Assembly (NCBI GenBank): GCA_964600165.1
Contig: CAZRIP010000003.1
Coordinates: 4,683-68,682, forward strand
Source: an uncultured Elusimicrobia bacterium
GTDB taxonomy: Bacteria > Elusimicrobiota > Elusimicrobia > UBA1565 > UBA9628
Direction: 5' to 3'
Length of the DNA stretch: 64,000 bases
Positions within the stretch are counted from its first letter, which is position 1. Every line of letters starts with the position of its first letter. The notes beneath the pieces are model-generated. The model did no database searches. It saw only the letters and a program-made list of their open reading frames with translations, and was not told the origin of the DNA. Both the position numbers and the translations under genes were made by a program. Shown in pieces: positions 9,436 to 47,795 of the stretch.

Positions 9436-9444
9436 CGCCGAAGG

Positions 9445-11252: not shown

Positions 11253-11254
11253 GT

Positions 11255-12655: not shown

Positions 12656-12677
12656 GGTCGTTTGATCTAAATTTTCA

Positions 12678-12748: not shown

Positions 12749-13036
12749 GTCAGAGCTGGGATCGGAGGACGGCACGCCGCCGCGCTTGACCTCCTCGTGG
12801 TAGCAGGCGATGACCCGGTCTTCCAAGACCTTGCGAAAATCCATGTTGATCGGATGGGCGATGTCCTTATACGTGCCGTCGGGCAGCTTGCGCGACGGCA
12901 TGCACAAGATGAGTCCTTTGTTGCTCGAGATGATCTTCATGTTCCGCACGACGAAGCAATTGTCGAAGGTCACGGTCGCGAAGGCCTTCAGCTTGTCTTC
13001 GTTGCGCAGATGAACGCGGATTTCCGTGATCTCCAT
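12734..13036 (-). CDS. spoVG: Septation protein SpoVG
   Basis: MEITEIRVHLRNEDKLKAFATVTFDNCFVVRNMKIISS is a near-canonical SpoVG. The ATG at 13036 overlaps the ispE stop (TAATG). The ORF runs ~15 nt into the tRNA-Gln before its first stop. Confidence 0.85.
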   Translation of the reverse strand: MEITEIRVHLRNEDKLKAFATVTFDNCFVVRNMKIISSNKGLILCMPSRKLPDGTYKDIAHPINMDFRKVLEDRVIACYHEEVKRGGVPSSDPSSDSQVV

Positions 13037-30431: not shown

Positions 30432-30919
30432 ACGAGCACGATGAAGGCCAGCTGCTGTCGGCCTATCTCGACGGAGAGCTGTCCGCCGACGAGAACGCTC
30501 GCGTGAAGGTCCACCTCGACGGCTGCCCCGGCTGCCGCGTCGATCTCGAGGGCCTGCGCCACGCCAAGCACTTGCTCGCCGCCGCCCCGCGGCGCGCCAT
30601 GCCTCCCGAGCTCATCGCCGATTTGAACGAGCGCCTCGAGGCCCCGACCCTCGCCGACCGGTTGTTCGCCTGGCGCCGCTCGCCGCGCGTCATGGTCCCG
30701 GCGGGCGCGTTCGCGGCGCTCGCGCTGGCCGCCGCCTCTTGGTTCGTCTGGCAGAGCCGCGAGCCCGACCAATTCGTCCCGCTCGAGCCTCTTCTCGCCG
30801 CCCACTCCCGCTACGAAGCCGAGTCGCTCGTGCCGCAAGGAAGCCTCGTCGCGTCGAGCTACGCCTCGAATTTGACGGCCTTCTATGCGGATGGGCAGGA
30901 TCAAGACTCCGCTGAATAA
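30428..30919 (+). CDS. Transmembrane zinc-binding anti-sigma factor (HxxxCxxC 'ZAS' motif)
   Basis: LSAYLDGELSADENARVKVHLDGCPGCR is the HxxxCxxC zinc motif. One TM helix (AGAFAALALAAASWFVW) and a short C-terminal exo-domain. 4-nt overlap with the sigma gene. Confidence 0.7.
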   Translation: MNEHDEGQLLSAYLDGELSADENARVKVHLDGCPGCRVDLEGLRHAKHLLAAAPRRAMPPELIADLNERLEAPTLADRLFAWRRSPRVMVPAGAFAALALAAASWFVWQSREPDQFVPLEPLLAAHSRYEAESLVPQGSLVASSYASNLTAFYADGQDQDSAE

Positions 30920-31934
30920 GGCGCTCGCCGGCGCTCTGCTCGTCCTCGCGGCGACGCGCGGAGCGCGGGCCGAGGCGCCTCCGGACCCGCAGAAGCTCCT
31001 GTCCGCCGTCCTCGAGCCCTCCGCCGTGGCCTTCGAAGGGCGCATGATGGTCACGCATTGGTACGGAAAGCACCACAGCGAGGCGGAGGAAGTCCACGTC
31101 TACCATTTGCCGCCGAACCTGAGCCGGCGGGAGTTCACCGCGCCCGACGGCACGGTCACGAAGGTCGTCGTCAGCGACGGCGACCGCGAGGAAGTCCACC
31201 TCATCCGCCAGAAGAAGATCATCGAGGGCGACGCCGTCAAGTCGTTCGAGAAGCTCATGCCCGAGGACCGCGAGCTCGAGCTTTTGCTCAAGAACTACAA
31301 GCTCTCGGTGACGGGACCGGACCAGGTCGCCGGCCGCAAGGCCTGGGTCCTTCACATGGCGTCGGATCATCCCGGCAAGCCCTCGCAGGACTTCTGGGTC
31401 GATCAAGAGACGCACGCGATCCTCGAGAACCGCCGCTTTCTCCCGCACCGGCCCTTCGCCGCTTTGTCGCGCTACTCGCATTTCGAGACCAAGAAGACTC
31501 TCCCGGAAGATCTGTTCAAACTCGAGCTCTCGTCGAGCGCGATCCAGGGCAAGGGGCTCGAGCCCGATTTCATGAGCCTCGACGAGCTTTCCCAAACGAG
31601 CGGAAAGAAGGCGGCGTTCCCCGTGGCGCTCAACGACGGCTTCGTCTTCGAGAGCGCCGATTACTTGACGGTCGGCAAGCACACCGTCTTGCACGCGCGC
31701 TACACCGACGGGCTCGCCGTGATCTCGCTCTTTCAGACCGACCGTCCGGCGCGCAGCACGAGCAAGACGGACTCCCAGGTCGCCGCGCCGGCGTCCTCGG
31801 CCAAAGGCGCCGGGCAGCTGCGCCTGTCGGCCTCGGCGAAGGTCTTGAATTTCCGGCGCGGCCCGCGCTTTTACACGCTGATGGGCGACGTCTCGCGCGA
31901 GATGCTCCAAGAGATCGCCGCGCAAGTCAAGTAG
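30885..31934 (+). CDS. RseB/MucB-like anti-sigma-factor-binding periplasmic protein (LolA-like fold)
   Basis: Signal peptide. The N-terminal domain pattern FEGRMMVTHWYGK...EVHVYH...RREF.APDG fits RseB. Third gene of the sigma/anti-sigma cassette. Confidence 0.5.
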   Translation: MRMGRIKTPLNKALAGALLVLAATRGARAEAPPDPQKLLSAVLEPSAVAFEGRMMVTHWYGKHHSEAEEVHVYHLPPNLSRREFTAPDGTVTKVVVSDGDREEVHLIRQKKIIEGDAVKSFEKLMPEDRELELLLKNYKLSVTGPDQVAGRKAWVLHMASDHPGKPSQDFWVDQETHAILENRRFLPHRPFAALSRYSHFETKKTLPEDLFKLELSSSAIQGKGLEPDFMSLDELSQTSGKKAAFPVALNDGFVFESADYLTVGKHTVLHARYTDGLAVISLFQTDRPARSTSKTDSQVAAPASSAKGAGQLRLSASAKVLNFRRGPRFYTLMGDVSREMLQEIAAQVK

Positions 31935-32011
31935 CGGGTCCCCCACCGTCCACGCCGCTCTCCTTGAAAGCCCGCCGAGGGGCTGTTACACTTCCCGTGA
32001 TCGGCGCGGCC

Positions 32012-32635
32012 ATGGATGACATGCTCGAGCCTTCCGTAGGTGCGCCCGCCAAGCGTCGGCGGCGGACGGCGCTTTTGGCGGGCGCCGCGGCGTTGCTGCT
32101 GTCCGCGCCGCTCGGCATGGTGTTGCGCCGGCGAAAAGCCGCCGTGCCCGATCAAGACGAGGGCTTTAAGCCCATCGCCGAGATCAGCGGTCTCGCGCGC
32201 GACGCGACGCGCGTCCGGCTGGCGCAGCCCAAGCCCAAACCGGAGCTCGCGTCGACAATCTCGCTGCCCACTTTTTCCCCGCCGCCTCCTCGCGCGAGGA
32301 CGGAACCGGCCATGAAGAAAACACTCCCCGCTCCGAGAAGGCTGGCGGCGAAGACAAAGAAAAAACGCGCTCGTCCCGCGGCAGCCAAAACGCAGGCGAA
32401 AACCGCCGCGCCGCCGATCTTCGCGCGCTCGGAGGATTTCTTTGATCTGGATTTCCCGATGCCTGCTCGCGGCCCTGAAACCGCGGCCGCGCCGCTCAAG
32501 CAGCGCCCGCCATCGGCGCTCGAGCCCGTCGCCGTCCCGGACCCTCTCGAGCTGTCCGCGACCAAAGACGACGCGACCGCGCCGAGCCGCGCCGGATCGC
32601 CCGCCGTCATCGTCGAGCGCGTGCCGAGCAATTAG
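32012..32635 (+). CDS. Hypothetical single-pass membrane protein with a Pro/Ala/Lys-rich tail
   Basis: ATG at 32012 (MDDMLEPS...). TM helix TALLAGAAALLLSAPLGMVL. 207 aa. Forms the C-terminal part of a longer out-of-frame track ORF. Confidence 0.4.
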   Translation: MDDMLEPSVGAPAKRRRRTALLAGAAALLLSAPLGMVLRRRKAAVPDQDEGFKPIAEISGLARDATRVRLAQPKPKPELASTISLPTFSPPPPRARTEPAMKKTLPAPRRLAAKTKKKRARPAAAKTQAKTAAPPIFARSEDFFDLDFPMPARGPETAAAPLKQRPPSALEPVAVPDPLELSATKDDATAPSRAGSPAVIVERVPSN

Positions 32636-32649
32636 GTAGTATCGCTGCC

Positions 32650-34014
32650 GTGCTCGACGCGCTGATCGTCCTCGCCTACCTCGCCTGCGTCGTGTTCCTC
32701 GGCTTATGGGCCGCGCGCCGCGGGCACGATGGCCTTTCCGACTTCGTGCTCGCGGGGCGGCGCCTGACGCTGCCGCTGTTTGTCGCCACGCTCGTGCCGA
32801 GCTTCTACGGCGGCGTGCTCGGCGTCGGCGAGTTCACGTGGGAAAACGGCCTTTCCAATTGGCTCGTGATGGGCCTGCCTTATTACGTCTTCGCCGCGGT
32901 CTACGCCGTCGCGCTCGCGGGCCGCGTGCGCGCCGCCGAGGGGCTGACGATCCCCGATCACTTCGAGCGCGCCTATGGCCCGCGATTGGCCGCCTGGTCC
33001 GGACTGCTCGTCTTCCTGCTGGCCAATCCCGCCGACGAGCTGCTGATGATCGGGCTGCTGCTTTCGCGCGCGATCGGCGTGCCCGTGGCCGCGGCCATGG
33101 CGCTCGCCGGCGCGGCTTCTTTCGCGCTGCTGCGGCGCGGCGGGCTGCGCTCGGACGTCTGGGCCAACGCGCTCCAGTTCGTCGTGATGTTCGCGGGCTT
33201 CGCCGTCATCTTGCCGGGGGCTCTCTCGCGCGCGGGCGGATTGGGAGGCTTGAGCGCCGCGCTGCCGGCCGGCCACCTGTCTCTGAGGGGCGGCATGAGC
33301 GGATGGCGGATATTGAGCTGGTGGCTGATCGCCGTCTGGACGCTCGTCGACCCGTCTTTCCACCAGCGCTGCGCGTCCGCCGAGAGCGGCGCGACCGCGC
33401 GCGCCGGCATCTTGTGGTCGATCGCGTTCTGGTTTCTCTTCGACGCGATGACGACGACGGCGGGGCTGTGCTCGCGCGCGCTGATGCCGGGGCTGCGCGC
33501 CCCGCTGCTCGCCTACCCGTCGCTCGCCGACGCCCTGCTTCCGGCGGGGCTGCGAGGCCTCTTCTACGCGGCCCTGGCTTCCTCGATCCTCGCGGCGCTC
33601 CAGACCAAGACGCTCCTCGCCGGCGTGAGCCTGGGCAAGGACGCCGCCGCGCGGATACTTTCTCTGGGCGAGCGCGCGCAGCAGTCGCTCGCGCGGTGGG
33701 CGCTGCTCGCCGCGCTGGCGCTCGGCTGGGCGCTGGCGCTCTGGATCCCGTCGGTCGTCGATCTCTGGTACGCGGTCGGCACGACGATCATCCCCGCGCT
33801 GCTGCTGCCGCTGCTGGGGACGTATTTCCCCCGCATGCGGGTCTCCGCGCGGTTCGCCGCGCTCTCGTCGGCCGCGGGTCTCGCCCTTTCGGGCGGCTTC
33901 TGGCTCGCGGGACGTTTCCTCGGCGCCCCGCCGTGGGGCATCGAGCCGATGTTTCCCGGCTTGGCCGCGTCGGCGCTCGTCTGGGCGGTCGGCTTAAGTC
34001 GGGCTTTGGCGTAG
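32650..34014 (+). CDS. Sodium:solute symporter (SSS) family transporter
   Basis: 454 aa with ~12-13 TM helices. SSS-like N-terminal region. GTG start. Confidence 0.65.
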   Translation: MLDALIVLAYLACVVFLGLWAARRGHDGLSDFVLAGRRLTLPLFVATLVPSFYGGVLGVGEFTWENGLSNWLVMGLPYYVFAAVYAVALAGRVRAAEGLTIPDHFERAYGPRLAAWSGLLVFLLANPADELLMIGLLLSRAIGVPVAAAMALAGAASFALLRRGGLRSDVWANALQFVVMFAGFAVILPGALSRAGGLGGLSAALPAGHLSLRGGMSGWRILSWWLIAVWTLVDPSFHQRCASAESGATARAGILWSIAFWFLFDAMTTTAGLCSRALMPGLRAPLLAYPSLADALLPAGLRGLFYAALASSILAALQTKTLLAGVSLGKDAAARILSLGERAQQSLARWALLAALALGWALALWIPSVVDLWYAVGTTIIPALLLPLLGTYFPRMRVSARFAALSSAAGLALSGGFWLAGRFLGAPPWGIEPMFPGLAASALVWAVGLSRALA

Positions 34015-34124: not shown

Positions 34125-37100
34125 ATGACCAAGCCACGCATCTCGACCAAGATCATCTCCGCCTCGCTGTCGACGGCGCTCGCGTTCCTTTCCTTCGCGC
34201 TGCCCGCGGCCCCGGCGCTCGGCGCCGAGCTGACCGCGGCGCCGACCATGGGCCTTCCGGCCGGCGGTTGGACGCCCGTCGTGGCCGGCCTCGCGACGCC
34301 CGCGAACCTCTCCCGGTTCTCGGGCGTCACGATGCAAGGCGTCGACGTCGCCGATCTTCTGACGCAAATCGGGCGCGTGAACTTAGCCGCTCCAGGCCAA
34401 TTCATTCCCGCGCAGGCTCTCGAAAAGCTCGCCGGTCTGCCGAAGAACGCCTCCGAGCGCGAGGTCGTGACGGCGCTGGCGCTCGCCGCCGCGCAGACGC
34501 GCGCCGACGCGACCGACGCGCTCGCGCAGCTGCGCTCGGGGGTCAAGGCCTCCGAGCTTCCGGCGCTCGCGGCTCGGCTCAACCGCGCCGACCTCGCCTT
34601 TACCCTGCTGACCTCCGAACAGCGCGCCGCGATCCCCGCCGCGTCGGCCGCCGTCTCGCGCGAAGTCGCGCAGACGCGCGGCGCGAACGCCGACCGCCTC
34701 GTGAAGATCGGCGTGACCGGCTGGAATAAGACGACGGACGCGACGGAAGTCTCCGGCTCCGAATCAACGACGCTCTCCCGGCTGTCTCCAGCGTCCGCCC
34801 AAGGCGAGAAGCGGACCGCCAACGCCATCGAGTATTCCCGCACCGTCGTCACGACGACGAAGACGACGACCAAGCTCGGCTGGAAGCAGGCGCTGCGCTA
34901 CGGCGCGCTGATCGCCGCCTTGCCCGTCGCCGTCTTCGCGCTGCCGCAGATGAGCCCGGTCGCGCTGATCGTCGCCGTCGGCGTGATGGGCTCGGTGGTC
35001 GCGCACGAGTACGCGCACCTCTTCATGCTCCGCCGGCTGGGCGACGACACGTCGACCAAGCAGAACGTCTCGGCCAACCCCTTCAAGCTCGTCGACCCCG
35101 TCGGCACCGTCGCCGTGCCGGTCATCACCTCGGCGCTCTCCGCGGCGTTAGGCGTCCCGGCGCTCTTCGGCTGGGCCAAGCCCGTGCCGGTCGACTTCAA
35201 CAAACTCGCCGACCCGCAGAAGGACGCGATGAAGGTCGCTCTCGCCGGGCCGGTCATGAACGCCGCTCTCGGCGCCGTCGCCTTCGGCGCCCTCGCGCTC
35301 TTCCACCCGGCCGGGGCCGCCGCGGCGTCGCTCTTGGCGCTCGGCAAGATCAACCTCGTGCTCGCCGTCTTCAACATGCTGCCGTTCTCGCCGCAGATGG
35401 ACGGCTTCAAGGTCGCCATCGGGATGCTGTCGCGCGAGCAGTACGCGAAATGGACCGAGAACAAGAGGCTGCCTGAAGCCTACCGCTCCACGTTCAACAA
35501 GCTCTTCGAGGGGCCGTCCGCGATCCTCAACTGGGTCGGCATGGACAGCCAGGGGCACGTCAACTTCGCCACGCGGGCGATCACCTTCGCCGCGTTCGGC
35601 GTCGTGGCCATCGCCGCGCACGCCTTCATCGGCGCGCCGTTCATCATCATGGCGCTCGTCTGCAGCTACGACTACTACTGCATCCGCGAGAAGATCCAAA
35701 ACGAGGAGGCGGTCAAGAAGCTGATCCCGATCATGCAGGGGATCGGCTCGGCGATCGCGCGCGTCGCGGAGGAAGACGAGTCCATCCAGTCGCAGATCAA
35801 CACGGAAGAGATCGAGCACGCGATGAAGAACGTGTTCGAGGACGTCCTCGATAAAGTCGTCGACTCGACGGGCTTCTCGAGCCTTTCGGACGATGAGAAG
35901 TGGTCGCGCTTCGAGGAGGCTTATCTCGACGCCGCCGTCGACTCGCTCTCGCGCAAGGGCATGTCGAAAGACTCCAAGGAAAAGATCCGCGAGACGCTGC
36001 GCCACCAATACGTGCGGGAGTACATCGACAAGCTGCGCGGCTGGGTGGAGGAGAACGACGTCTGGCGCAAGTGGCACAGCCCGAACCGCAAGAAGAAGAG
36101 CGGCATCAGCGAAGCGGTCAAGAAGAAGGCCGGCTCCCTCGGCTCCTCGGGCATGGCCGTCGTCGCGCTCGCGCTCGTGGGCGGCTCGATCCTCGCGCCG
36201 CACGGCGTCGGCGCGGCGCTGAGCCTGGCCGGCGCGGGGCTGATGATGGGCACGATCTCGGCCAAGAAGCCCAAGCCTTTCAAAGAAGCCCTCGAGGATT
36301 TGCGGCTCTCCGACAAGGAGCTCGCCGCGATGATCATGCTCCTGAAAGACATGACGCTCGACAACAAGCCGCCGCTGTCGGGCCGCATCGACGAGCTCTC
36401 GCGCGCGTATTCCGGCGTGACCGGACCGCGCGGCATCAAGGAGTCGGTCGCGCTCGTCGGCAAGCCCGGCACGGGCAAGACCGCGATCGTCGAGAAGCTC
36501 GCGCAGTCGGCCGTGATGGGACAGAGCCACGAGGGGACGCTTTCCCTTAAGAAGATGGAAGGCCGCTACGTCATCGAGGTCAACTCGACGCGCCTCATGC
36601 GCCAGGAAGACCCGGCCGGCACGCTCGAAGCCGTCATCGACATCCTCAACAAGCTCAACGAAGAAGACCCTCGCGCGGGCAACAAGGTGATCCTGTTCCT
36701 CGACGAGGCGCACGTCCTCTTCGACGGCGAGAAGGGCAAGCACGTCGCCAACACGTTGAAAAAGCCGGTCCGCGACGGCGCCGTCTCCATCATCCTCGCC
36801 ACGACGCTCGACGAGTACAAGAAGTACGTCGAGCCCGACGAAGCCCTCAAACGCCGCTTCCCGGCGATCTTCGTCGACGAGTCGACGACCGAGGAGACGC
36901 TGCGCGCGCTGGAAAACGCGAGCGCGTGGTACGAGAAGCGCTTCGGCGTGAAGGTCGACCCTTCCGCGCTCAAGGCCGCCGCCGAGTTGGCGCCCAAGTT
37001 CAACCACGAGGAGTATCTGCCCGGCAGCGCGTTCACCTACTTCGAGAACGCGGTCAAGTGGGCCGACTTCGACCTGCGCCGCGACTTGGTCGCGCTGTCG

Positions 37101-40100
37101 ATCGCGGATAAGATCAGCGATCTCCAGTACGCGATGAAGAAGCTCAAGGAGAACCTCCAGAAGACCGACCGGGTCACGGAGAATCTCAAGAAAGACGAGC
37201 CGACGACCGTCGGGTACTACAATCTCGCGATCAAGCTCAGCCAAGAGCTCGTCGAACTCTACAAGGAGCAGGCCGCGATCCCGGCCGAGGGCAAGCCCGT
37301 CGTCGACGGCGAGCTCGTCGGCATGGCGATCTCGCGCGAGACCGGCATCAAGTCCGGCCAGCTCACGCTCGGCAGCGAGCCGATAGAGAAATACCTCAAG
37401 ATGGAAGAAGAGGTCGGCAAGAAGGTCATCGGCCAGCCGGACGCGATCGCCGCGATCGCGCGCTCGGTGCGCCAGAACAAGGCCGGCCTCTCCGATCCCA
37501 AGCGGCCGCTCGGCGTCTATTATCTGACCGGCCCGACGGGCTCGGGCAAGACGCACCTCGCCAAGGAGCTCGCCCGCTTCCTCTTCGATGATCCGGAAGC
37601 CGTCGTGCGCGTCGACATGTCGGAGTACATGGAGAGCCACTCGGTCTCGAAGTTCATCGGCTCGCCCCCCGGCTACGTGGGCTTCGAGTCCGGCGGCCAG
37701 CTGACGGAGGCCGTCCGCAAGAAGCCGTACTCGGTCGTGCTCTTCGACGAGATCGAGAAGGCGCACCCGCAGGTCTGGCTGATGATGCTCCAGATCCTGG
37801 GCGAAGGGCGCCTGACCGACGGCCAGGGCAAGACGACGAGCTTCAAGAACACGATCATCCTCATGACGTCGAACCTCGGCATGCACGCCGTCGACGTCGA
37901 GCCTTACGTGAAGGCTTTCGAGGAGCTGCGCGCCAAGGAGCGGGCCGCCGCGGGCGACCGTATCGCCCTGCGCGAGCTCGAGCAGGAGAAATTAGAGCTC
38001 GCCGAGCGGCTCTCCGCGGAGACCAAGGCCGCGACGTCGGTGATCACGGCCCAGGCTTTCAAGGAGACTTACCCGCCGGAGTTCGAGGGCCGCTTATCGG
38101 CGCCTCCGATCGTCTTCAACCGCATCACGCCGGCGATGGCGCTGCAGATCGCGGAGTTGAATCTCAAGGAGCTGCGCGGCGTGCTCGGCTACGCCGGCCA
38201 CGAGTTCGCCTGGACGCCCGGCGTCGTCAAGAAGGTCGTCGACGAGGGCTTCTCGGTGCGGCTGGGCGCGCGCCCGCTGCAAAACGCCATCGACCGCCTG
38301 ATCACGCAGAACATCGCCACGGAGATCCTCCACACGGCGATGCGGAACGGCGGCAAAGTCGAGCCCTCGCGCATCGAGGCCGTGCTCGGCGAGGACGGCG
38401 AGGTCAAGCTCAACATCAAGTCGCTGCCTCCGAAGCAGGTCAAGAAGGGCGAGGCCCAGGGCGCGGCCAAGGAGCTCTTCACGACGGTGCTCGAGCAGAC
38501 GCTGACGGCGGCGGCCGACACCGCCGTGCCGGCGCCGACGCTCCAGATCATCGACGAGTGGGTCAAGGCCGCGCTCGCCGCCAACCCCGAGCAAACCTCG
38601 GTCGCTGACGCGGCTCAGCCCGAGACGGCGCAGCCTGCCGCTCCCGCGGACGAGGAGCAAGTCGCGCGCCCCGCGCCCGTCCAGGCTCCCGTCAGGCCCG
38701 GACTCCTGACGCTTGACGCGGCTTCGCCGCTCTCGGCGCAGGCGCGCAGCGTGGCCGCCGCCAACAACGACCCCGAGCTCAAGGACCCGGGCGTCCGACA
38801 GGCCGCCGCCGCGATCAAGGAAGCCATGGCCGGCTATCCCGAAGCCGCGCGCGAGGCCGTCCTGCGCACGATCGAAGATCAGAACGACCCCTACGTCGGC
38901 TGGCTCAAGATCTTCGTAGAGCAAGCCAAGCGCAACGGCGGAGGCAATCCGACCATCAAGTACGAGGTCAACGACGAAACGGCCCGCGTCGCCGTAGCTC
39001 GCACCGGCGCGCTGTCGAGCCGCGAGAAGGACTTGCTGACCCGGCACTTCACCGGCCTCGCGCCGTTGGACGCCTCGCAGGCGCGCACCCGCGTCGAGAC
39101 CTGGAACGTCCAGGACAGCGGCTCGGGCATGCGGCTGATGCTCGACCTCCATCGCATCCTCGCGAAGATCCCCGGCGCCAAGCTCGGCGTCGAGGTGGCG
39201 GGCGGCGGCGTCGAGTACTGGATCGAGATCCCGAAGCCCCAGACGCCCGCGGCGCCCGCGGCCGAACCGACTCCTCCGACCTCGGCGGAAGCGGCGCCTC
39301 CGGCGACGCAGCCGGCGGCCCCGCGCCCGCTCGTGGCGGCGGCCGAGGGCGCTCCCCAGTTCAACGAGGCGGGGAACGCCACGCCGCTCGCGGTGGCTAA
39401 GCGCGGGCTCTCGGACGATTCCATCAAGACCCACGCGACCCGCATCCGGAACGCGATGGCAGAGAAATCGTACGGCGGCGAGGCCAAAGGCGCCGCGGTG
39501 CTCTTTCTCGCTCGGGCCGCGGACTTCATGAAGTCCAACGCCGCCACAGGCGAAGGCGTCACCCTGATGTGGAGCGTCGACGAAAACGGCGCGCAGGTCC
39601 TGATCCACCGCGCGGGCCATCCTCTCAACGACGCCGAGATCGCGCGTCTCAACATCCTCATCGACAGCAGCACGGAGCTGAAGGCAAAGCTCGAAGCTGC
39701 GGGGGGTCGAGTGTTTTATGGCTCGGAAGAATTCTCGCAAGGGGGCAACGGCGCCTCCGTGTGGATCCAGCTCCCTCATCAAGCGCCGGCCGGCCAGGCC
39801 GACGGCAGCGCGGCGACGCCGCTCTCTTCCACGCAGGAAGGGACCGACGTCGCCGCGCTGCTGGCCAAGATCCACACGCCCTCGGAAGCCGGCAGCGATC
39901 CGCGGATCATGTGGGTCGCCTTCAGCGGAAGCGAAGAGGACGCGCTCGGGCAGCTCGAGGCGCGCGGCTTCGAGGTCCCGCTCGTGCGCCACGAGGACGG
40001 CTTCAAGCGCGCCCGGCTCATCGCTCCGACGGCCCAGGCCGCGGCGCGCGCCGCGCTGATGCTCGCCGTGAACCCGGATGTCCGGGAGATCGACCTGCAT

Positions 40101-42410
40101 CCCCAGGCGCGCTCGCTCATACGCGCCACGCCGGCGGCCGACATGTCTCACGCGCCCGAGGGCTTCACCTCCGTCGAGATCGACCGGGTTTCCCCGAACG
40201 CCGAGGACGCGGAGCTCGGCAACGCGAAGAATTCGATCCGGCGCGCCGCGCCTGAAGGCGACGCCCGCCGGCAGGCCGCGCTCGCCCGATTCGTGGACGA
40301 GACGGCGCGTAAAGCCAAGGAGTCCTCGCGCCCGGGCGACAAGATCTTCGTCGAATGGAAGGCGACGCCCGACGAGCTGCAGGTCTCGGTGCGCGTGCAA
40401 GGCGCCGCGGTCAACGCTCTCGAGTGGACCGGCTGGGCCGCGGGCTCCGTCTTCGCCGCCGAGCTCGCCGAGATGAACGGGATGGTGCACGTGGAGGGCG
40501 GCGCGGGCGGCGGACGCTTCACGCTTTCGCTGCCGGCTCCGCGCGCGGTCTCCGGGACCCGCCCGGGCTCCGGCGCGCCCGCGATGCGCGCGACGACCCA
40601 ATTCAAGGAGCAGCTCGTCACGCTGATGCGCGAGCTGATCCGCCAAAGAGAGCAGCGCGGCCTGGCGCTGCGCTACACGGCGGCGGAGATCGTCGCCGAA
40701 GCGTCGTCGCGCTCCGACATGGACTGGACGGCCGATTGGCTGCGCTTCGCCAGCGACCCCGAGGTCACCTCGGTCAATGAGGACAACGGCCCTCAAGTCG
40801 CCGCCGCCGGCATGGTCATCTCCAAGCACGGCAGCCGCTCGCAGGACGAGCGGCGCCTGATCGCCGCGATGAAGAAATTCCAATCGAGCGACAGCTGGGA
40901 CCATGCCCGTCCCGCGCGCACGCGCCTGATCCGTTCGCTCGCCAAGCTGCTGACGCCCGGAAACGACCGCCAGCTCGAGGAGCTCATCGCGCGCTACGAC
41001 CGCCAGAAGCAGCCGAACCTCCCGGCCTCCGAGAAGCTCCACGCCGACGTCGTGCTGGCGATCCAGACCGCGCTGCTGCGCAACGCCGGGCGCGACCAGT
41101 TCGACAAGCTCGTCACGCGCGACTGGAACAAGCGCCTTTTCGCCGAGACCTACGACTACGTCAAGCGCGTCAACCCCGATTATCTGCGCCGCGTCTACGA
41201 CGACTGGAAGGCCGGCAACACGCTCGACGGAGCGCGCCGCATGATGGCTCTCTGGGCCATCGCCGATTACGGCGACCGCGGCGACATGGCGACGCTCATG
41301 GCCTCCGTGCGCGAGGACCGCTGGATGGGCTCGTCGGTCAACCTCGAGGAGAAGAACTTCTTCGGCGAGGCGCTCGGCCGCATGGCGCAGCGCCTCGGCT
41401 ACGACGACGCCCTCAAGCACGACGCGCGGCTTTGGATGCGCGAGGGCATGGGCACCGGGGGCAGCTACCTGCGCATGGTGACGGCGGTCCAGATCGCCGG
41501 CGCGGTCGGCGACGCCGAGGACATGCCGTACTTGGAGCGGATCTTCCGCGTGAACCCGTCCGGCGGCGTCTCCTTCGAGCACGAGATGACGCAGATGGAA
41601 TCGACGGTCGCCTGGGGCAAGATCGCGCAGCGCGAGGGCTTGGTTCCCGAGTATTGGGGCACGCGCCAGGACCCGAGCGACCCCAATTCATTGCCGCTGC
41701 TGCAGGCCTGGCTCTCGGACACGAACTCCGGCGTCAACATGGCCGCCGCCCAAGCTCTCCTCGAGTTCGTCAAGCACGGCTCGCCCGCCCGCCCCGCCGC
41801 GGCCGCGGCGCGCCCGGCGCCACCCGTGGCCGACCACCCGTTCTTGCGCACCGGCGCGCCGTCGATGCCCGGCGGCGACTTGCGCACGTTCACCGAGACG
41901 CCGTCCGACGCGACCCTGCCCTACGCACGGTTGAGCGACGGCAATAAGGAGTTCGCCCGTCTTTGGCTCGACGCATTCGGCAGCATCGCGAGCGCCATTT
42001 TCGGCTTGGACTTCTCACGCCAGCTGCGCATGTCGCAGAACGCCTCGGCCGGCGCCGCCACGTTCGTGCTGTCTCAAGCCGGTGGGAGCGCGATCGAGGC
42101 CGCCCGCTTCGCCGAGTTCCGCCAGCTCGTGCTGCTTTTGCTCAACATCGCGCGCGACCCGCAGGACGTCCGCGCGCGCAAATGGACGGAACTCTCCGCG
42201 CGCTTCGTCGAGGTCCACACGGCTTACACGGTGCTCAACGGGCTGGTGAACCAAGCCGGCGTCTCGATGGGCGTCAATCATGACGCCTCGCTCCCGGGCG
42301 AGCCCGCGCGCGCCGAGATCTGGCTCAAGTTCGACGTCAGCGGCCGCCCGACGCCGCCCCGGCCGTCTAACCCGAGCTTGCGCGACGACGGCGACGACCT
42401 CCCGTTTTGA
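34125..42410 (+). CDS. Giant 2,761-aa multidomain membrane protein: signal peptide, M50/site-2-protease-like domain, ClpB-like double AAA+ module, three GHKL-like repeats, C-terminal alpha-helical repeats
   Basis: One uninterrupted ORF. GGGAGA SD lies 9 nt upstream of the ATG. M50 motifs: HEYAH (35004-35018) and NMLPFSPQMDG (35373-35405). NBD1: Walker A GKPGTGKT (36458-36481), Walker B ILFLDEAH, then ATTLDEYKKYVEPDEALKRRF. NBD2: GPTGSGKT (37530-37553), VVLFDEIEKAHPQVW, MTSNLG, sensor-2 GARPLQNAIDR. Three repeats ending GGGVEYWIEIP, GGNGASVWIQLP and GGAGGGRFTLSLP. Confidence 0.85.
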   Translation: MTKPRISTKIISASLSTALAFLSFALPAAPALGAELTAAPTMGLPAGGWTPVVAGLATPANLSRFSGVTMQGVDVADLLTQIGRVNLAAPGQFIPAQALEKLAGLPKNASEREVVTALALAAAQTRADATDALAQLRSGVKASELPALAARLNRADLAFTLLTSEQRAAIPAASAAVSREVAQTRGANADRLVKIGVTGWNKTTDATEVSGSESTTLSRLSPASAQGEKRTANAIEYSRTVVTTTKTTTKLGWKQALRYGALIAALPVAVFALPQMSPVALIVAVGVMGSVVAHEYAHLFMLRRLGDDTSTKQNVSANPFKLVDPVGTVAVPVITSALSAALGVPALFGWAKPVPVDFNKLADPQKDAMKVALAGPVMNAALGAVAFGALALFHPAGAAAASLLALGKINLVLAVFNMLPFSPQMDGFKVAIGMLSREQYAKWTENKRLPEAYRSTFNKLFEGPSAILNWVGMDSQGHVNFATRAITFAAFGVVAIAAHAFIGAPFIIMALVCSYDYYCIREKIQNEEAVKKLIPIMQGIGSAIARVAEEDESIQSQINTEEIEHAMKNVFEDVLDKVVDSTGFSSLSDDEKWSRFEEAYLDAAVDSLSRKGMSKDSKEKIRETLRHQYVREYIDKLRGWVEENDVWRKWHSPNRKKKSGISEAVKKKAGSLGSSGMAVVALALVGGSILAPHGVGAALSLAGAGLMMGTISAKKPKPFKEALEDLRLSDKELAAMIMLLKDMTLDNKPPLSGRIDELSRAYSGVTGPRGIKESVALVGKPGTGKTAIVEKLAQSAVMGQSHEGTLSLKKMEGRYVIEVNSTRLMRQEDPAGTLEAVIDILNKLNEEDPRAGNKVILFLDEAHVLFDGEKGKHVANTLKKPVRDGAVSIILATTLDEYKKYVEPDEALKRRFPAIFVDESTTEETLRALENASAWYEKRFGVKVDPSALKAAAELAPKFNHEEYLPGSAFTYFENAVKWADFDLRRDLVALSIADKISDLQYAMKKLKENLQKTDRVTENLKKDEPTTVGYYNLAIKLSQELVELYKEQAAIPAEGKPVVDGELVGMAISRETGIKSGQLTLGSEPIEKYLKMEEEVGKKVIGQPDAIAAIARSVRQNKAGLSDPKRPLGVYYLTGPTGSGKTHLAKELARFLFDDPEAVVRVDMSEYMESHSVSKFIGSPPGYVGFESGGQLTEAVRKKPYSVVLFDEIEKAHPQVWLMMLQILGEGRLTDGQGKTTSFKNTIILMTSNLGMHAVDVEPYVKAFEELRAKERAAAGDRIALRELEQEKLELAERLSAETKAATSVITAQAFKETYPPEFEGRLSAPPIVFNRITPAMALQIAELNLKELRGVLGYAGHEFAWTPGVVKKVVDEGFSVRLGARPLQNAIDRLITQNIATEILHTAMRNGGKVEPSRIEAVLGEDGEVKLNIKSLPPKQVKKGEAQGAAKELFTTVLEQTLTAAADTAVPAPTLQIIDEWVKAALAANPEQTSVADAAQPETAQPAAPADEEQVARPAPVQAPVRPGLLTLDAASPLSAQARSVAAANNDPELKDPGVRQAAAAIKEAMAGYPEAAREAVLRTIEDQNDPYVGWLKIFVEQAKRNGGGNPTIKYEVNDETARVAVARTGALSSREKDLLTRHFTGLAPLDASQARTRVETWNVQDSGSGMRLMLDLHRILAKIPGAKLGVEVAGGGVEYWIEIPKPQTPAAPAAEPTPPTSAEAAPPATQPAAPRPLVAAAEGAPQFNEAGNATPLAVAKRGLSDDSIKTHATRIRNAMAEKSYGGEAKGAAVLFLARAADFMKSNAATGEGVTLMWSVDENGAQVLIHRAGHPLNDAEIARLNILIDSSTELKAKLEAAGGRVFYGSEEFSQGGNGASVWIQLPHQAPAGQADGSAATPLSSTQEGTDVAALLAKIHTPSEAGSDPRIMWVAFSGSEEDALGQLEARGFEVPLVRHEDGFKRARLIAPTAQAAARAALMLAVNPDVREIDLHPQARSLIRATPAADMSHAPEGFTSVEIDRVSPNAEDAELGNAKNSIRRAAPEGDARRQAALARFVDETARKAKESSRPGDKIFVEWKATPDELQVSVRVQGAAVNALEWTGWAAGSVFAAELAEMNGMVHVEGGAGGGRFTLSLPAPRAVSGTRPGSGAPAMRATTQFKEQLVTLMRELIRQREQRGLALRYTAAEIVAEASSRSDMDWTADWLRFASDPEVTSVNEDNGPQVAAAGMVISKHGSRSQDERRLIAAMKKFQSSDSWDHARPARTRLIRSLAKLLTPGNDRQLEELIARYDRQKQPNLPASEKLHADVVLAIQTALLRNAGRDQFDKLVTRDWNKRLFAETYDYVKRVNPDYLRRVYDDWKAGNTLDGARRMMALWAIADYGDRGDMATLMASVREDRWMGSSVNLEEKNFFGEALGRMAQRLGYDDALKHDARLWMREGMGTGGSYLRMVTAVQIAGAVGDAEDMPYLERIFRVNPSGGVSFEHEMTQMESTVAWGKIAQREGLVPEYWGTRQDPSDPNSLPLLQAWLSDTNSGVNMAAAQALLEFVKHGSPARPAAAAARPAPPVADHPFLRTGAPSMPGGDLRTFTETPSDATLPYARLSDGNKEFARLWLDAFGSIASAIFGLDFSRQLRMSQNASAGAATFVLSQAGGSAIEAARFAEFRQLVLLLLNIARDPQDVRARKWTELSARFVEVHTAYTVLNGLVNQAGVSMGVNHDASLPGEPARAEIWLKFDVSGRPTPPRPSNPSLRDDGDDLPF

Positions 42411-43183
42411 CGCCGCTCGCCGAATTCGGACCCTATAAGCTCGCTGGCCTTGCCGCCCTGATCTTCTTTGGCGGCGTCGTCGACGCCCTGGCGGGCGGCG
42501 GCGGCCTAGTGACGATCCCCGCCTACCTCGCCTTCGGCCTCGATCCTCGGTTCCTGCTCGGGACCAACAAACTCAGTTCCTGCATCGGCACGGCGGCCGC
42601 CTCGCTCAACTATCAAAGGAACCAGCGCCTCGACTTGGCGGCGATGGCGCCCGGCTTCGCGGCGGCGCTGCTCGGGGCGGTCCTGGGAGCGACGGCGGCG
42701 AAGTCCCTCGGCGCGAGCGGCATCCGGATCCTCGTGCTCGTCGCGCTGCCGCTCGTCGGCTGGTTCATCTACTCGAAGCACGGGTTCGGGCGGGAGGACC
42801 GCAGCGCCTCGCTCGGCGGCGCGCTCAAGAGGCGCGAAACGGCCCTCGCGCTGCCGATCGGGGTTTACGACGGCTTTTTCGGTCCCGGGACAGGGCTTTT
42901 CTTCGCGCTAGCCCAGGTGCGCTGGTGCCGCCGCGACTTGCTCGGCGCGACCGTGCGCGCGAAGTTCTTGAATCTCACGACCAATCTCGCCGCCCTCGCC
43001 ACTTTTCTGCTCGCCGGTCGCGTCGACATCCCGCTCGGACTGCTGATGGCCGCGGCGAGCGTCGCGGGAAACTGGACAGGTTCGCATCTGGGCCTCAAGA
43101 ACGGCCCAAAGGCGATCCGCCCCGCCGTCCTTCTCGTCTGTTTCGGCCTTTTCGCGAAACTTTTGCTCGACTATCTGAAGTAA
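42407..43183 (+). CDS. Sulfite exporter TauE/SafE-family membrane protein (DUF81)
   Basis: GGVVDALAGGGGLVTIPAYL is the TauE signature. The TTG start overlaps the giant gene's stop (TTGA). Confidence 0.75.
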   Translation: MTPLAEFGPYKLAGLAALIFFGGVVDALAGGGGLVTIPAYLAFGLDPRFLLGTNKLSSCIGTAAASLNYQRNQRLDLAAMAPGFAAALLGAVLGATAAKSLGASGIRILVLVALPLVGWFIYSKHGFGREDRSASLGGALKRRETALALPIGVYDGFFGPGTGLFFALAQVRWCRRDLLGATVRAKFLNLTTNLAALATFLLAGRVDIPLGLLMAAASVAGNWTGSHLGLKNGPKAIRPAVLLVCFGLFAKLLLDYLK

Positions 43184-44374: not shown

Positions 44375-45436
44375 ATGGCGGTCTCCCGCCAAGAGCTCGA
44401 AGCGGCCCTCCAAGAGCTGACGAAAGCTCTGGAGGGCTTCGCGTCTCAGGCCGGCGTCACCCCAGACCAGCTCGAGGCCTTCCGCGTCCAATACGTCGGG
44501 CGCAGCGGCAAGGTCACCGAACGGCTCAAGTCGCTCAAGGACTTGTCGATGGACGACAAGCGCGAGCTCGGCCCGAAGCTCCAGCAGCTCAAGGGCCTTT
44601 TCGACTCGGCGATCGGCGCCAAGCAGCGCGCGCTCGAGGCCGAGCAAGACGCGAAGACCTTGTCCGATTCCGGCATCGACCTCACGCTGCCGGGCTTTCC
44701 GTCCCCGCGCGGCCGCGTGCACCCTCTCACGCAAGTGCTCGACGAAATGGGCCGCATCCTCGGCCTCATGGGCTTCTCCTGGGCCGAGGGCCCGTTCGCC
44801 GAGACCGATTACCACAACTTCACCGCTTTGAACATCCCGGAGCATCACCCCGCGCGCGACATGCACGACACCTTCTATTTGAAGGAATTCCCGCTCGTGC
44901 TGCGCACGCACACCTCTCCGGTGCAGATCCGGACGATGGAGGCGCGCAAGCCGCCGCTGCGCATCATTTGCCCGGGCCGGGTGTTCCGCCACGAGGCCGT
45001 GGACGCCACGCACTCGGCCGTATTCCATCAAGTCGAGGGCCTCGCCGTCGACGAGAGCATCGGCTTCGCCGACTTGAAAGGCACTCTTTCCGACTTCATG
45101 AAGCGCCTCCTCGGGTCGGACACCAAGATCCGCTTCCGGCCGTCGTACTTCCCGTTCACCGAGCCCTCGACTGAAGTCGACGTGACGTGCTTTTTCTGCA
45201 AGCAGAAGGGCTGCCCGGCCTGCAAGCACACGGGCTGGATCGAGCTTCTGGGCGCCGGCGTCGTCAACCCGAACGTCTTGCGCGCCGTCGGCTACGATCC
45301 CGAGAAGTGGTCCGGCTTCGCGTTCGGCATCGGCGTGGAAAGGATCGCCATGCTGCGCCTGGGCGTGCGCGACATCCGCCTGTTTTACGAGAACGACCTC
45401 CGCTTCCTCGAGCAATTCGATGAAAATCTCGTTTAA
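44375..45436 (+). CDS. pheS: Phenylalanine--tRNA ligase alpha subunit
   Basis: Class II motifs PGRVFRHE...FHQVEGL...GFAFGIGVERIAML. Confidence 0.95.
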   Translation: MAVSRQELEAALQELTKALEGFASQAGVTPDQLEAFRVQYVGRSGKVTERLKSLKDLSMDDKRELGPKLQQLKGLFDSAIGAKQRALEAEQDAKTLSDSGIDLTLPGFPSPRGRVHPLTQVLDEMGRILGLMGFSWAEGPFAETDYHNFTALNIPEHHPARDMHDTFYLKEFPLVLRTHTSPVQIRTMEARKPPLRIICPGRVFRHEAVDATHSAVFHQVEGLAVDESIGFADLKGTLSDFMKRLLGSDTKIRFRPSYFPFTEPSTEVDVTCFFCKQKGCPACKHTGWIELLGAGVVNPNVLRAVGYDPEKWSGFAFGIGVERIAMLRLGVRDIRLFYENDLRFLEQFDENLV

Positions 45437-47795
45437 CTGGCTCAAGGAGCGCCTCCCGCTCTCGCTCTCCGCCGAGCAGCTCGCGGAGCGCATGCCGCAG
45501 CTCGGCTTCGAGGTGGCGTCCATCGAGAAACGCGGGCCCGCGTTCACGGGCGTCGTGACCGCGCAGATCCTCCAGATCGACAAGCACCCGAACGCGGACC
45601 GCCTCTCTCTGTGCGTCGTCGAAGACGGCACCGGCAAAGTATCTGTTGTTTGCGGCGCGAAGAACATAGCCGTCGGCCAAAAGATCCCTTTTGCCCGCGT
45701 CGGCGCCGTGCTTCCCGGCGACTTCAAGATCACGAAGTCCAAGATCCGCGGCGTGGAGTCGAACGGGATGATCTGCTCGGCGGAAGAGCTGGGCATCGGA
45801 AAAGCGAACGGCGGCATCCTCGTCCTCGATCCGAGTATCAGCATCGGCAAGGACTTCGCCTCCATGCTCGGTCCGGCCGACGACGTGCTCGAAGTCGAGA
45901 TCACGCCGAACCGGCCCGACTGCCTTTCGCACTTGGGCCTGGCGCGCGAGCTCGCCGTCTTCCTCAAGACGCCTCTCGTCCATAAGCCGCTGCCCGCGCT
46001 TTCGGAGTCCGGCGAGTGCCCCAGGATCACGATCAAGGACCCTCTTTCCTGCCCTCGCTACGTCGGCCGCTTGATCACGGGCGTGAAGGTCGCGGAGAGC
46101 CCGGCCTGGCTCAAGGCCAAGCTCGAGGCCGTCGGCCTGCGCCCGATCAACAACGTCGTCGACGTCACCAATCTCATCTTGATGGACATGGGGCAGCCGC
46201 TGCACGCCTTCGACCTTCAGAAGCTGAGCGGCCCGGAGATCGTCGTCCGAGCCGCTTCCAAAGGCGAAAGGATCAAGGCTCTCGACGGCAAGACCTACGA
46301 CCTGACCGACGCCAACCTCGTGATCGCCGACGCGCAAAAGCCGGTCGCCATCGCGGGCGTCATGGGAGGCGAGGAGACGGGCGTGACGGAAGCGACGACG
46401 TCGGTGCTGCTCGAGTCCGCGTACTTCGCGCCGCCGGCCGTGCGCAAGAGCGGCCAGAAGCTGCGCCTGCGCAGCGACTCGTCCTATCGCTTCGAGCGCG
46501 GCGTCGATCCCGGCGCCGTCGAGGAAGCGTCGGCGCGCGCGGCGGCGTTGATCGCCGAGCTCACCGGCGGCAAGGCGTCCACGGCGCGCGCCGCCGGCGA
46601 GGCGTATAAGCCCCGCCCCGCGATCTCTTTTACGAGCGCGCGCATCAACCGGATCCTCGGCTCCGAGTTCTCGGAGAAGGAGATCCTCGGCGTCCTTTCC
46701 GCGATCGGCGCGATCTCCCCGCACGAGTTCTCCGCGCCTTCGCACCGCGGCGACTTGGAGACCGTCTGGGACCTCGCGGAGGAGGTCGGCCGCCTGCTCG
46801 GCTACGACGCGATCCCCTCGCGCATCAAGCCTTTCACCGTCGAGCCGTCGGCGCAGACGCCGATGCAGACCCTCGGCGCTCGCCTGCGCCAGCGGCTCGT
46901 CGCGCAAGGATTCTTCGAGGCCTATAACTACGACCTCATCGCAAGGAAGGAGCTGACGAGCCTCGGCATGGCGGCCGAGGGCTTGGTCGAGCTCGCGAAC
47001 CCGCTTTCCGAGGACTGGGCGCTGCTGCGGCCGTCGCTGCTGCCGAGCCTCCTGCGCAACGCGGTCTTCAACAAGAACCGCGGCGCCAAGGCCGCGCGGC
47101 TCTTCGAGCTCGGCAAGATTTACGGCAAGGCGGAGGGGCAAGTCACGGAGCGCTGGCGCCTGGCCGGCGTCATGCTCGGCCCCGTCGCGCCGGCGTTCTG
47201 GAAAGCGGCGCGCACCCCCGACGCCGATTTCCACGATTTGAAGGGCGTGATCGAGGATCTGGTCGCCGGCCTCCCCGGCGTCAAACTCGAGCCGCGCGGC
47301 GTCGACCCTCACTGCCCGAACACGCCGCTCTATCATCCCGGCGCGGCGATGAAGCTCACGCTCGGGAAAGAGAAGCTCGGCGACTTCGGACTCCTGCATC
47401 CGCGCGTCGCGCGCGCGCTCGACCTCGACCGCCAGCCGGTCGGCGTCTTCAATCTCAAGCTCGACGTGCTTTTGTCGGCGAAAGCGCCCGCGACGCGTTT
47501 TACGCCGTTCTCGGTCTTCCCTTCCGTTGAGCGCGACCTCAGCTTCTTCGTCGACGCCAAGCGCCTCTACGCGGAGCTCGAGTCCGCTATCCGCGAAGCC
47601 GCCGGAGCCGAGTTGCGAGGGCTCTCGCTCATCGATCTGTTCGCGGGCAAGGGCGTTCCCGAAGGCAAGCGCAGCCTCACGGTCCGCCTGGTCTTTTCCA
47701 GAGAAGACCGCACGCTCACCGACCCCGAGGTCAACCAAGCGGTCGACGCGGCGATCAAGGCGCTGGAGGCCGCCGGCGCGATCTTGCGCAAATGA
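45420..47795 (+). CDS. pheT: Phenylalanine--tRNA ligase beta subunit
   Basis: MKISFNWLKE N-terminus. tRNA-binding, B3/B4, B5 and FDX-ACB domains. 791 aa. Overlaps pheS by 17 nt. Confidence 0.95.
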   Translation: MKISFNWLKERLPLSLSAEQLAERMPQLGFEVASIEKRGPAFTGVVTAQILQIDKHPNADRLSLCVVEDGTGKVSVVCGAKNIAVGQKIPFARVGAVLPGDFKITKSKIRGVESNGMICSAEELGIGKANGGILVLDPSISIGKDFASMLGPADDVLEVEITPNRPDCLSHLGLARELAVFLKTPLVHKPLPALSESGECPRITIKDPLSCPRYVGRLITGVKVAESPAWLKAKLEAVGLRPINNVVDVTNLILMDMGQPLHAFDLQKLSGPEIVVRAASKGERIKALDGKTYDLTDANLVIADAQKPVAIAGVMGGEETGVTEATTSVLLESAYFAPPAVRKSGQKLRLRSDSSYRFERGVDPGAVEEASARAAALIAELTGGKASTARAAGEAYKPRPAISFTSARINRILGSEFSEKEILGVLSAIGAISPHEFSAPSHRGDLETVWDLAEEVGRLLGYDAIPSRIKPFTVEPSAQTPMQTLGARLRQRLVAQGFFEAYNYDLIARKELTSLGMAAEGLVELANPLSEDWALLRPSLLPSLLRNAVFNKNRGAKAARLFELGKIYGKAEGQVTERWRLAGVMLGPVAPAFWKAARTPDADFHDLKGVIEDLVAGLPGVKLEPRGVDPHCPNTPLYHPGAAMKLTLGKEKLGDFGLLHPRVARALDLDRQPVGVFNLKLDVLLSAKAPATRFTPFSVFPSVERDLSFFVDAKRLYAELESAIREAAGAELRGLSLIDLFAGKGVPEGKRSLTVRLVFSREDRTLTDPEVNQAVDAAIKALEAAGAILRK

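Follow-up and report, generated by a model that had tools for sequence, protein, structure and literature searches.

What could domains with the look of a histidine-kinase ATPase be doing in a protein that combines a protease with an unfoldase? This question is raised by a 64-kb stretch of DNA (64,000 nucleotides, referred to here as the window) from an uncultured Elusimicrobia bacterium. A single open reading frame (ORF) at 34125-42410 of its forward (+) strand encodes a protein of 2761 amino acids (aa) in the order signal peptide, M50 site-2 protease, ClpB-like double AAA+ unit, R1, R2, an intervening domain, R3, a HEAT-like region, and a C-terminal domain. R1, R2, and R3 are the repeat units of interest. 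In a sequence-only reading, they had been described as three tandem repeats of about 150 aa with glycine boxes like those of GHKL ATPases. The nine peptides quoted there are each found at exactly the coordinates given, and all are in frame with the ORF. The answer that we favor, with a probability of roughly 60%, is that the three units are paralogous GHKL-fold pseudo-ATPase modules of the size of SpoIIAB, which act as docking or regulatory modules in the protease-unfoldase. The part of the protein concerned is organized as follows.

38745..39242, + strand: R1, aa 1541-1706, about 165 aa, pseudo-GHKL domain and family-defining copy (AlphaFold2 model, Foldseek, and the 13-sequence alignment A1)
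39243..39377, + strand: Pro/Ala-rich linker between R1 and R2 (fraction of Pro plus Ala)
39378..39782, + strand: R2, aa 1752-1886, about 135 aa, shorter paralogue of R1 (hhalign to the R1 family; 4-sequence alignment A2)
39837..40160, + strand: intervening domain, aa 1905-2012, about 110 aa, between R2 and R3 (copies in relatives detected by a hidden Markov model, HMM)
40206..40541, + strand: R3, aa 2028-2139, about 110 aa, the most reduced paralogue (hhalign to the R2 family; weak Pfam HATPase_c match)

The terminal hairpin of R3 is GGAGGGRFTLSLP. The earlier description holds for the number of units and for their kinship, but the units are not strictly tandem, as the intervening domain splits R2 from R3, and their lengths are about 165, 135, and 110 aa rather than 150 aa each. 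The Pro/Ala-rich linkers that it placed between the repeats are real. The fraction of Pro plus Ala is 0.56 at aa 1704-1751 and 0.43 at aa 1488-1540, compared with 0.20 in the whole protein.

Paralogy and fold of the repeat units

When single sequences are compared, the kinship of the three units is barely visible. Smith-Waterman alignments (1000 shuffles) give z scores of 2.4 for R1-R2, 3.9 for R2-R3, and -0.3 for R1-R3, which are weak or marginal. With family profiles, in contrast, the internal repeat signal is strong. The R1 family (13 sequences) and the R2 family (4 sequences) are aligned by hhalign over the full domain (119 columns) with a probability of 97.7% and an E-value (E) of 1.8e-12, and the R2 and R3 families over 84 columns with a probability of 95.9% and an E of 6e-9. 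Column-shuffled controls score 17.5 at most, while the observed scores are 76.4 (R1-R2) and 53.7 (R2-R3). The direct profile comparison of R1 with R3 is not significant, and the kinship of these two is therefore transitive. The R2 HMM matches R1 and R3 of the window (independent E-values of 2e-5 and 4e-5, respectively). It also matches an R-type domain outside its training set, encoded in the ORF downstream of P0005 in L005 (independent E-value of 2e-6). Judged by their sequences, R1, R2, and R3 are true paralogues, and this is visible only by profiles.

A GHKL-type fold is supported for R1 by structure prediction, in agreement with what the sequence-only reading had proposed. The AlphaFold2 model of R1, built on alignment A1, has a predicted local distance difference test (pLDDT) score of 86 and a predicted template modeling score of 0.80. 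Its elements are, in model numbering, a strand, two helices, a helix (53-64), a hairpin (70-87), three further helices (92-102, 110-121, and 128-141), and a second hairpin (146-163). In the numbering of the protein, we recognize an N-box-equivalent helix (aa 1593-1604), a β-hairpin (aa 1610-1627), a helix ending in HFTG (aa 1641-1644), an extra lid helix, helix 3, and the hairpin with PGAxxG ... GxxYWxExP. This is the two-layer α/β sandwich of the GHKL (Bergerat) fold, with N-box helix, β-hairpin, helix, lid, helix, and β-hairpin in order. When the model is compared with the PDB by Foldseek, the top 50 matches are all GHKL kinases (best E of 6e-4, probability of about 1.0). They include CpxA, HK853, ThkA, EnvZ, VanS, AdeS, PDK, BCKDK, ChpT, RetS, and the kinase modules of bacteriophytochrome and plant phytochrome. 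The core alignments cover about 115 columns with root-mean-square deviations of 3.7-4.5 Å and query-normalized template modeling (TM) scores of 0.4-0.48. A second model, which was predicted from a single sequence for the whole region, is of low confidence (mean pLDDT of 56, and about 60-80 within R2 and R3). It matches the same superfamily, including UsfX, SpoIIAB, and RsbW, with target-normalized TM scores of 0.59-0.69, although which repeat was matched is not indicated.

Sequence methods see much less of this fold. Among 24,736 Pfam models, HATPase_c (PF02518) is the sole recurrent weak match, and it stays below its gathering cut-off of 26.4 bits: R3 of the window scores 14.0 bits (E of 0.071, profile positions 5-109 of 111), and the orthologous R2 of P0003, which is the best case, scores 17.5 bits (E of 0.0056). 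No HATPase_c match is found by Pfam in R1 or R2 of the window or in any of the 13 R1-family sequences. Searches of PDB sequences with the region and with the A1 and A2 profiles return nothing at E <= 1. Of the reference proteins that had been suggested for comparison, SpoIIAB, RsbW, and histidine-kinase catalytic and ATP-binding (CA) domains are among the structural matches. For direct profile alignment, the reference sequences of EnvZ, CpxA, SpoIIAB, and RsbW were first confirmed against PDB chains. The R1 and R2 profiles are aligned to them by hhalign with probabilities of 12% at most and scores of 21-25. These scores are above 100 of 100 column shuffles, and the alignments are in the expected register for the N-box helix, the hairpin, G1, and helix 2. 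A canonical histidine kinase that could serve as an internal GHKL reference was searched for in the window and none was found.

ATP-binding positions

The residues that hold magnesium and adenine in GHKL ATPases are lost in all three units. At the position of EnvZ N347, the Mg-ligating Asn (N50 in SpoIIAB), R1 has Q1600 (Q, H, or L in its family) and R2 has Phe1801 (F/F/F/I in the four sequences). The N-box helix of R3 contains no Asn at all, and no Asn is conserved anywhere in alignments A1 and A2, whatever register is chosen. At the position of EnvZ D373, the adenine-binding Asp, we find R1626 in R1 (R/A/T/G/S in the family), R1829 in R2, and V2091 in R3. No Asp is conserved in A2, and A1 has just one near-invariant Asp (D14), which belongs to the N-terminal extension and not to the pocket. 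The G1 positions read ARTG in R1, HRAG in R2, and VRVQG in R3, so that of D-x-G-x-G the first Gly alone survives (G1628, G1831, and G2093). In the four R2 sequences, Arg1829 and Gly1831 at the D-x-G position are invariant.

The glycine-rich turns have to be assigned differently from the sequence-only reading, which took QDSGSGM of R1 as the G1 box and treated AAGGRVF (R2) and MNGMVHVEG (R3) as its equivalents, each about 25 aa before the repeat end. QDSGSGM is found at the G2/lid position, and the true G1 position has Arg, Arg, and Val in the three units. The turns of R2 and R3 align with KIPGAKLGV of R1, at 9 and 0 residues, respectively, before the terminal Gly turn. QDSGSGM itself is common only to the window and to P0001, a fragment with 69% identity. 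Of the 12 R1 homologues aligned in A1, 11 do not have SGSG; P0005 comes nearest with QDSSS, and others have DGRR, VWDH, and the like at the G2/lid position. R2 is without about 22 residues of the lid/helix region, and the alignment of R2 with R3 stops before that region. The N-box Asn, the Asp of D-x-G-x-G in G1, and the GxxGxG of G2/lid, which mark a catalytically competent domain, are not found. Since the Mg and adenine residues are lost in R1, R2, and R3, all three are best described as pseudo-ATPases, and from their sequences they do not look like kinases. Degeneracy had been suggested for repeats 2 and 3. It is supported for both, but R1 is equally degenerate, and the idea applies to all three.

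What is conserved in R1 lies elsewhere. H1641, G1644, P1683, G1684, G1688, W1699, and E1701 are invariant in A1, and they belong to HFTGxxP (aa 1641-1647), where helix 2 ends, to PGAxxG after helix 3, and to the terminal G...YWxExP hairpin. We also note a motif at the N-terminus of R1 (aa 1541-1555, 38745-38790; A1 columns 4-14), [AE]-H-[NY]-x-x-x-x-K/A-D, in 9 of the 13 sequences, with a near-invariant Asp. In R1 of the window, the partly conserved His of this AAHNxxxKD-type motif is replaced by Asn. In the model, the motif directly follows a short β strand (residues 2-4) and is not part of a helical hairpin. Pfam matches of the HisKA/DHp type (dimerization and histidine phosphotransfer domain) are found nowhere in the protein.

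Host protein, relatives, and gene neighborhood

Four further features of the host protein were located.

34974..35414, + strand: core of peptidase M50, a site-2 protease (Pfam PF02163, 29.3 bits against a cut-off of 27.2)
36342..38360, + strand: ClpB-like double AAA+ unit (Pfam AAA_2 2.6e-53, AAA 1.8e-16, ClpB_D2-small 4e-11, and AAA_lid_9)
40602..41894, + strand: helical HEAT-like region, C-terminal to the repeats (weak Pfam HEAT_2 match, E of 3.3e-4, 21.3 bits, below the cut-off of 27.7)
41937..42359, + strand: C-terminal domain, aa 2605-2745, possibly a fourth and very diverged copy of the repeat unit (weak hhalign match to the R1 family)

By motif scan, the catalytic motifs of both enzymatic parts are intact. 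The M50 core has HEYAH (aa 294) and NMLPFSPQMDG (aa 417; NxxPxxxxDG). D1 of the AAA+ unit has Walker A GKPGTGKT and Walker B ILFLDE, and D2 has GPTGSGKT, VVLFDE, and the pore loop GYVG. D2-small occupies aa 1338-1412, and the ClpB-like unit is directly upstream of R1. Because the AAA+ unit needs ATP, the C-terminal half of this giant membrane-anchored protein, including the repeats, is probably cytoplasmic. The C-terminal domain, which is conserved in P0003, L001, and L010, has the order helix, GVSMGV, AEIWLKF, paralleling PGAKLGV ... VEYWIEIP of R1. When its alignment of four sequences is compared with the R1 family by hhalign, the last 53 columns match with a probability of 55% and an E of 1.2e-4; with three sequences, the match is not significant. 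From this sequence likeness it may be a diverged fourth copy of the R-type module, which we regard as a lead and not as a finding.

Homologues were sought exhaustively by HMMER among 1.84 billion cluster representatives. Eighteen matches were obtained, of which 15 are true homologues. P0004, P0014, and P0017 were discarded as surface proteins with many Ig-like repeats, in which a short β-strand segment was matched many times. Scans of genomes and metagenomes added the homologues L001 and L010, while the metagenome scan with R2-R3 found nothing. Among its candidates, which were limited to 8000 and probably consisted largely of Ala/Pro-rich word matches, a word-indexed homologue search found none with aa 1540-2180 and P0001 alone with the R1 alignment. 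Exact matches to the protein of the window and to P0001 were not found in the assembly index. The 14 relatives recovered are from metagenomes of soil and groundwater, and L001, a contig of a metagenome-assembled genome, is labeled "uncultured Elusimicrobia sp." The HEAT-like region is kept in all longer homologues (P0002, P0003, P0006, P0008-13, P0016, L001, and L010), and in all homologues that extend far enough, R1 comes right after ClpB_D2-small. Between R1 and the HEAT-like region, the domain content varies, and R2 and R3 are lineage-specific. After R1, the homologues compared have the following domains.

Window: R2, intervening domain, R3
P0003: R2, R3a, intervening domain, R4, with the R3-orthologous copy at aa 2188-2302
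P0002: R2 only
L010: one intervening domain
P0006: no extra domains
L001: three intervening-type domains and no R2 or R3 (read from the translation, not by HMM)

We take R1, which is always present, as the ancestral copy, and R2 and R3 as old duplicates, specific to the lineage, in which the lid segment was lost. The identity of R2 between orthologues (31-36%) is about the same as that of R1 (28-41%), which argues that R2 is maintained.

The intervening domain is unrelated to R1, R2, and R3 and has no significant Pfam match. Its β-α pattern, as read from the sequence, looks like that of a subtilisin propeptide or a ferredoxin-type domain. An HMM built from the copies of the window, P0003, and P0013 detects more copies in L005 and L010, and the domain is listed in L001, L002, L004, L005, and L010 besides the window. 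Across relatives, it appears to be interchangeable in number with units of the R2/R3 type.

In some relatives, the homologue is spread over several ORFs. In L008 (CP096137.1, a complete 3.8-Mb genome), it is found at 5195-14871 as four ORFs, which carry M50, AAA+ D1, D2 with R1 and HEAT, and the C-terminal part. In L005-L006 (10001-19688), the break is right after R1 and is followed by an overlapping ORF of 1462 aa. L007 (ends at 15611) has the same break after R1, and the contig stops 312 nucleotides into the next ORF. These ORFs in L005-L008 could be either true splits or the result of frameshift errors in assembly.

The giant gene is preceded in the window (29850-34014, + strand) by genes for an extracytoplasmic function (ECF) sigma factor (29850-30431), a transmembrane zf-HC2 anti-sigma factor (HxxxCxxC; 30428-30919), a MucB/RseB-like protein, and an SSF transporter. 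The same order of ECF sigma, zf-HC2 anti-sigma, MucB/RseB-like, SSF transporter, and giant gene is found in L001 (795-4273), and it suggests a link of the M50 protease to anti-sigma cleavage. Two genes, the SSF transporter (32650-34014) and a small ORF at about 32000-32635 (predicted from the translation only), separate the sigma cluster from the giant gene. Downstream, a gene for a TauE/SafE-type exporter (42407-43183) overlaps the stop codon of the giant gene and is followed by pheS-pheT (44375-47795). TauE and pheST are also found downstream of the P0003 orthologue (L002), and pheST with infC-rpmI-rplT near P0005 (L005). These recurring neighbors indicate that the giant gene resides in a conserved housekeeping neighborhood. 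No STAS domain is found among the neighboring genes (ECF group 4 sigma, zf-HC2, MucB/RseB, SSF, TauE, and pheST), and the partner-switching context of SpoIIAB and RsbW, with an adjacent STAS anti-anti-sigma factor and a group-3 sigma factor, is not seen. Elsewhere in the window, a tRNA-Gln (anticodon TTG; 12678-12748, - strand) is the sole Rfam or ARAGORN match.

Proposed role and comparison with known systems

SpoIIAB, RsbW, and UsfX hold a sigma factor with the same fold, and the degenerate CA domains of ChpT, DivL, and RetS serve as interaction surfaces. For this reason a docking role is proposed for the R modules. By this analogy, remodeled GHKL domains would be protein-docking or regulatory surfaces rather than enzymes. 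The modules would hang on flexible Pro/Ala linkers around a presumably hexameric AAA+ ring, and they may bring clients or other partner proteins to the unfoldase and the intramembrane protease or hold them there. In R1, the conserved functional surface would then be marked by the invariant motifs HFTGxxP and PGAxxG...YWxExP.

Several points weigh against this proposal. The docking function comes from pure analogy. No sequence method is significant against GHKL (Pfam reaches 17.5 of the 26.4 bits, and PDB hmmsearch with A1 and A2 is empty), the Foldseek E-values are modest (6e-4 or weaker) with query-normalized TM scores of just 0.4-0.48, and R2 and R3 were modeled solely in the low-confidence single-sequence run. 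The residue mapping is based on low-probability profile alignments and topology, and it is conceivable that a metal is still bound by the Gln or His that replaces the Asn, in which case R1 could bind a nucleotide. In the comparison of upstream regions, from which that of L002 is missing, the sigma/anti-sigma cluster is found beside the homologue only in the closest relative, L001, and is absent in L005-L007 and L008.

Do these points favor another explanation? The similarity to GHKL might be convergent or artefactual, so that the repeats would be a two-layer α/β sandwich of an unrelated and undescribed fold family. The missing sequence link, the low TM scores, and an AlphaFold2 alignment of 13 sequences only agree with this. 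However, the best 50 PDB matches are all of one superfamily with a probability of about 1, the independent single-sequence model gives the same superfamily, HATPase_c is the sole recurrent weak Pfam match and is collinear over nearly the whole profile, and the profile alignments keep the correct register and score above every shuffle, which makes this explanation very unlikely. If the fold is accepted, R1 at least might still bind nucleotides and work as a kinase or as an ATP sensor, with QDSGSGM and GGG as lid and G-box. Its lid region is of full length and contains an additional helix, its G2 position reads SGSG in the window sequence, and the Ala and Lys of QAK are conserved in the N-box helix. 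The substitutions at the Mg-binding (Q/H/L) and adenine-binding (R/A/T/G/S) positions, a pocket with no conserved Asn or Asp, the absence of SGSG from nearly all homologues, and the lack of a HisKA/DHp domain or a nearby STAS partner speak against such an activity, and we consider it highly doubtful.

Two other explanations accept the loss of ATP binding and differ in what is bound. In one, the modules are sensors of a small molecule or peptide, and the remodeled pocket, lined by HFTGxxP, gates the ClpB-like motor allosterically. The invariant His and Gly of HFTG lie at the start of the ATP lid, R1 always comes immediately after D2-small, and the pocket residues are changed and not randomized, as is seen from the invariant Arg at the Asp position of the R2 family. 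On the other hand, the gene context points to no ligand, R2 is short of the lid/helix residues that would form most of the pocket, the R3 alignment stops short of them, and nothing separates a sensor of this kind from simple protein docking; we regard it as unlikely. In the other, the modules are anti-sigma-like binders for the neighboring ECF sigma/zf-HC2 pair, and the protein is an intramembrane-proteolysis and extraction device for that pathway. The upstream gene order in the window and L001, the established site-2 cleavage of anti-sigma factors by M50 proteases (RseP/RseA), and the match of the fold to SpoIIAB, RsbW, and UsfX all fit. Nevertheless, two genes intervene, the cluster is absent beside more distant homologues, and the recurring neighbors are housekeeping genes (pheST and infC-rpmI-rplT), so that the common order may reflect just close relatedness. 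The odds of such a binder are therefore poor. Sigma-factor coupling was downgraded as the main explanation because the synteny is not conserved past the closest relative. A still broader scheme, to which we give little credence, is a self-contained membrane machine in which SpoIIAB-like pseudo-kinase modules would capture clients, for example the upstream ECF sigma/zf-HC2 pair, and pass them to the unfoldase and the site-2 protease. If it were true, a single polypeptide would combine site-2 cleavage and extraction with the release of sigma, a new logic for the control of sigma factors or membrane proteins in Elusimicrobia-like bacteria.

Pseudo-ATPase docking modules remain our preferred reading. 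The R units are a sequence-orphan pseudo-GHKL family, multiplied in one chain and fused to a site-2 protease/ClpB-like unfoldase. They show that there are GHKL-fold domains that are not seen by Pfam and PDB sequence searches and that structure prediction detects. Their ATP residues are uniformly lost, yet the modules are maintained, duplicated, and always attached to the ClpB-like motor, which extends the known repertoire of bacterial pseudo-kinases and pseudo-ATPases past two-component systems. The family is rare, being confined in our search to 15 homologues from poorly studied soil and groundwater lineages, and its role is proposed by analogy. If the modules do dock clients, they would offer a way to study how an unfoldase can be coupled to an intramembrane protease and how the two can be targeted.

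Among known systems, the anti-sigma factors SpoIIAB, RsbW, and UsfX, which are Ser-kinases with a single GHKL domain (PDB 1TIL, 1TH8, 6M37, 8IH8, and 8JZT), are similar in size to the R units (about 130-165 aa) and have the same order of β1, helix, N-box helix, β-hairpin, helix, lid, helix, and β-hairpin. The target-normalized TM scores of 0.59-0.69 extend over 127-141 columns including gaps, in the low-confidence whole-region model. In these proteins, the GHKL body itself is the protein-binding surface that holds the sigma factor. There is no detectable sequence similarity between them and the R units, in which nothing corresponds to Glu46/Asn50 or to the G1 Asp. While SpoIIAB and its relatives are free 15-kDa dimers, each R unit is one of several copies in a 2761-aa protease-unfoldase with no STAS antagonist gene nearby.

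The R1 model has its best structural counterparts in canonical histidine-kinase CA domains (EnvZ 1BXD, CpxA 4BIU, HK853, and ThkA), for which E starts at 6e-4. Their C-terminal hairpin signature, hgG ... GT-f-f-LP, is kept in R1 as PGAxxG ... GxxYWxExP. R1 has not kept their N, G1, and G2 boxes, and unlike them it has an extra N-terminal strand with two helices, an extra lid helix, and no phospho-acceptor domain. Closer in likely function are the CA domains that have changed their use. ChpT and RetS have degenerate CA domains that serve as interaction surfaces and not for ATP-dependent autophosphorylation. The Foldseek matches include 4FMT (ChpT), 6DK8 (RetS), and 8ISI/8ISJ (phyA). The catalytic domain of DivL is described as repurposed as an input sensor (PMC4211667). 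These domains and the kinase-related domain of plant phytochrome have the GHKL fold in an interaction or regulatory use, in which the R modules are likely alike. They are still seen by HATPase_c models and are attached to a DHp hairpin, whereas the R family is invisible to Pfam, has no DHp, is multiplied in one chain, and is attached to an AAA+ motor. As the R units fail the HATPase_c threshold and the catalytic motifs, and as DHp and STAS are both missing, they resemble degenerate CA and anti-sigma modules in likely function without being members of either family.

The enzymatic half of the protein has its own parallels. In E. coli, the anti-sigma factor RseA is acted on by a site-2 protease and a Clp-family unfoldase, one after the other. 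The same pairing of an M50 protease with a Clp-family AAA+ unit is made here, with catalytic motifs intact, as in regulated proteolysis of the RseP/ClpXP type. FtsH, a membrane AAA+ protease, is another parallel. A literature search returned no description of a fusion of an M50 protease with a ClpB-like unfoldase, alone or with pseudo-GHKL and HEAT-like regions, and the combination appears to be undescribed so far. What sets the protein of the window apart is that a single chain carries the two activities as well as the pseudo-GHKL and HEAT-like regions.

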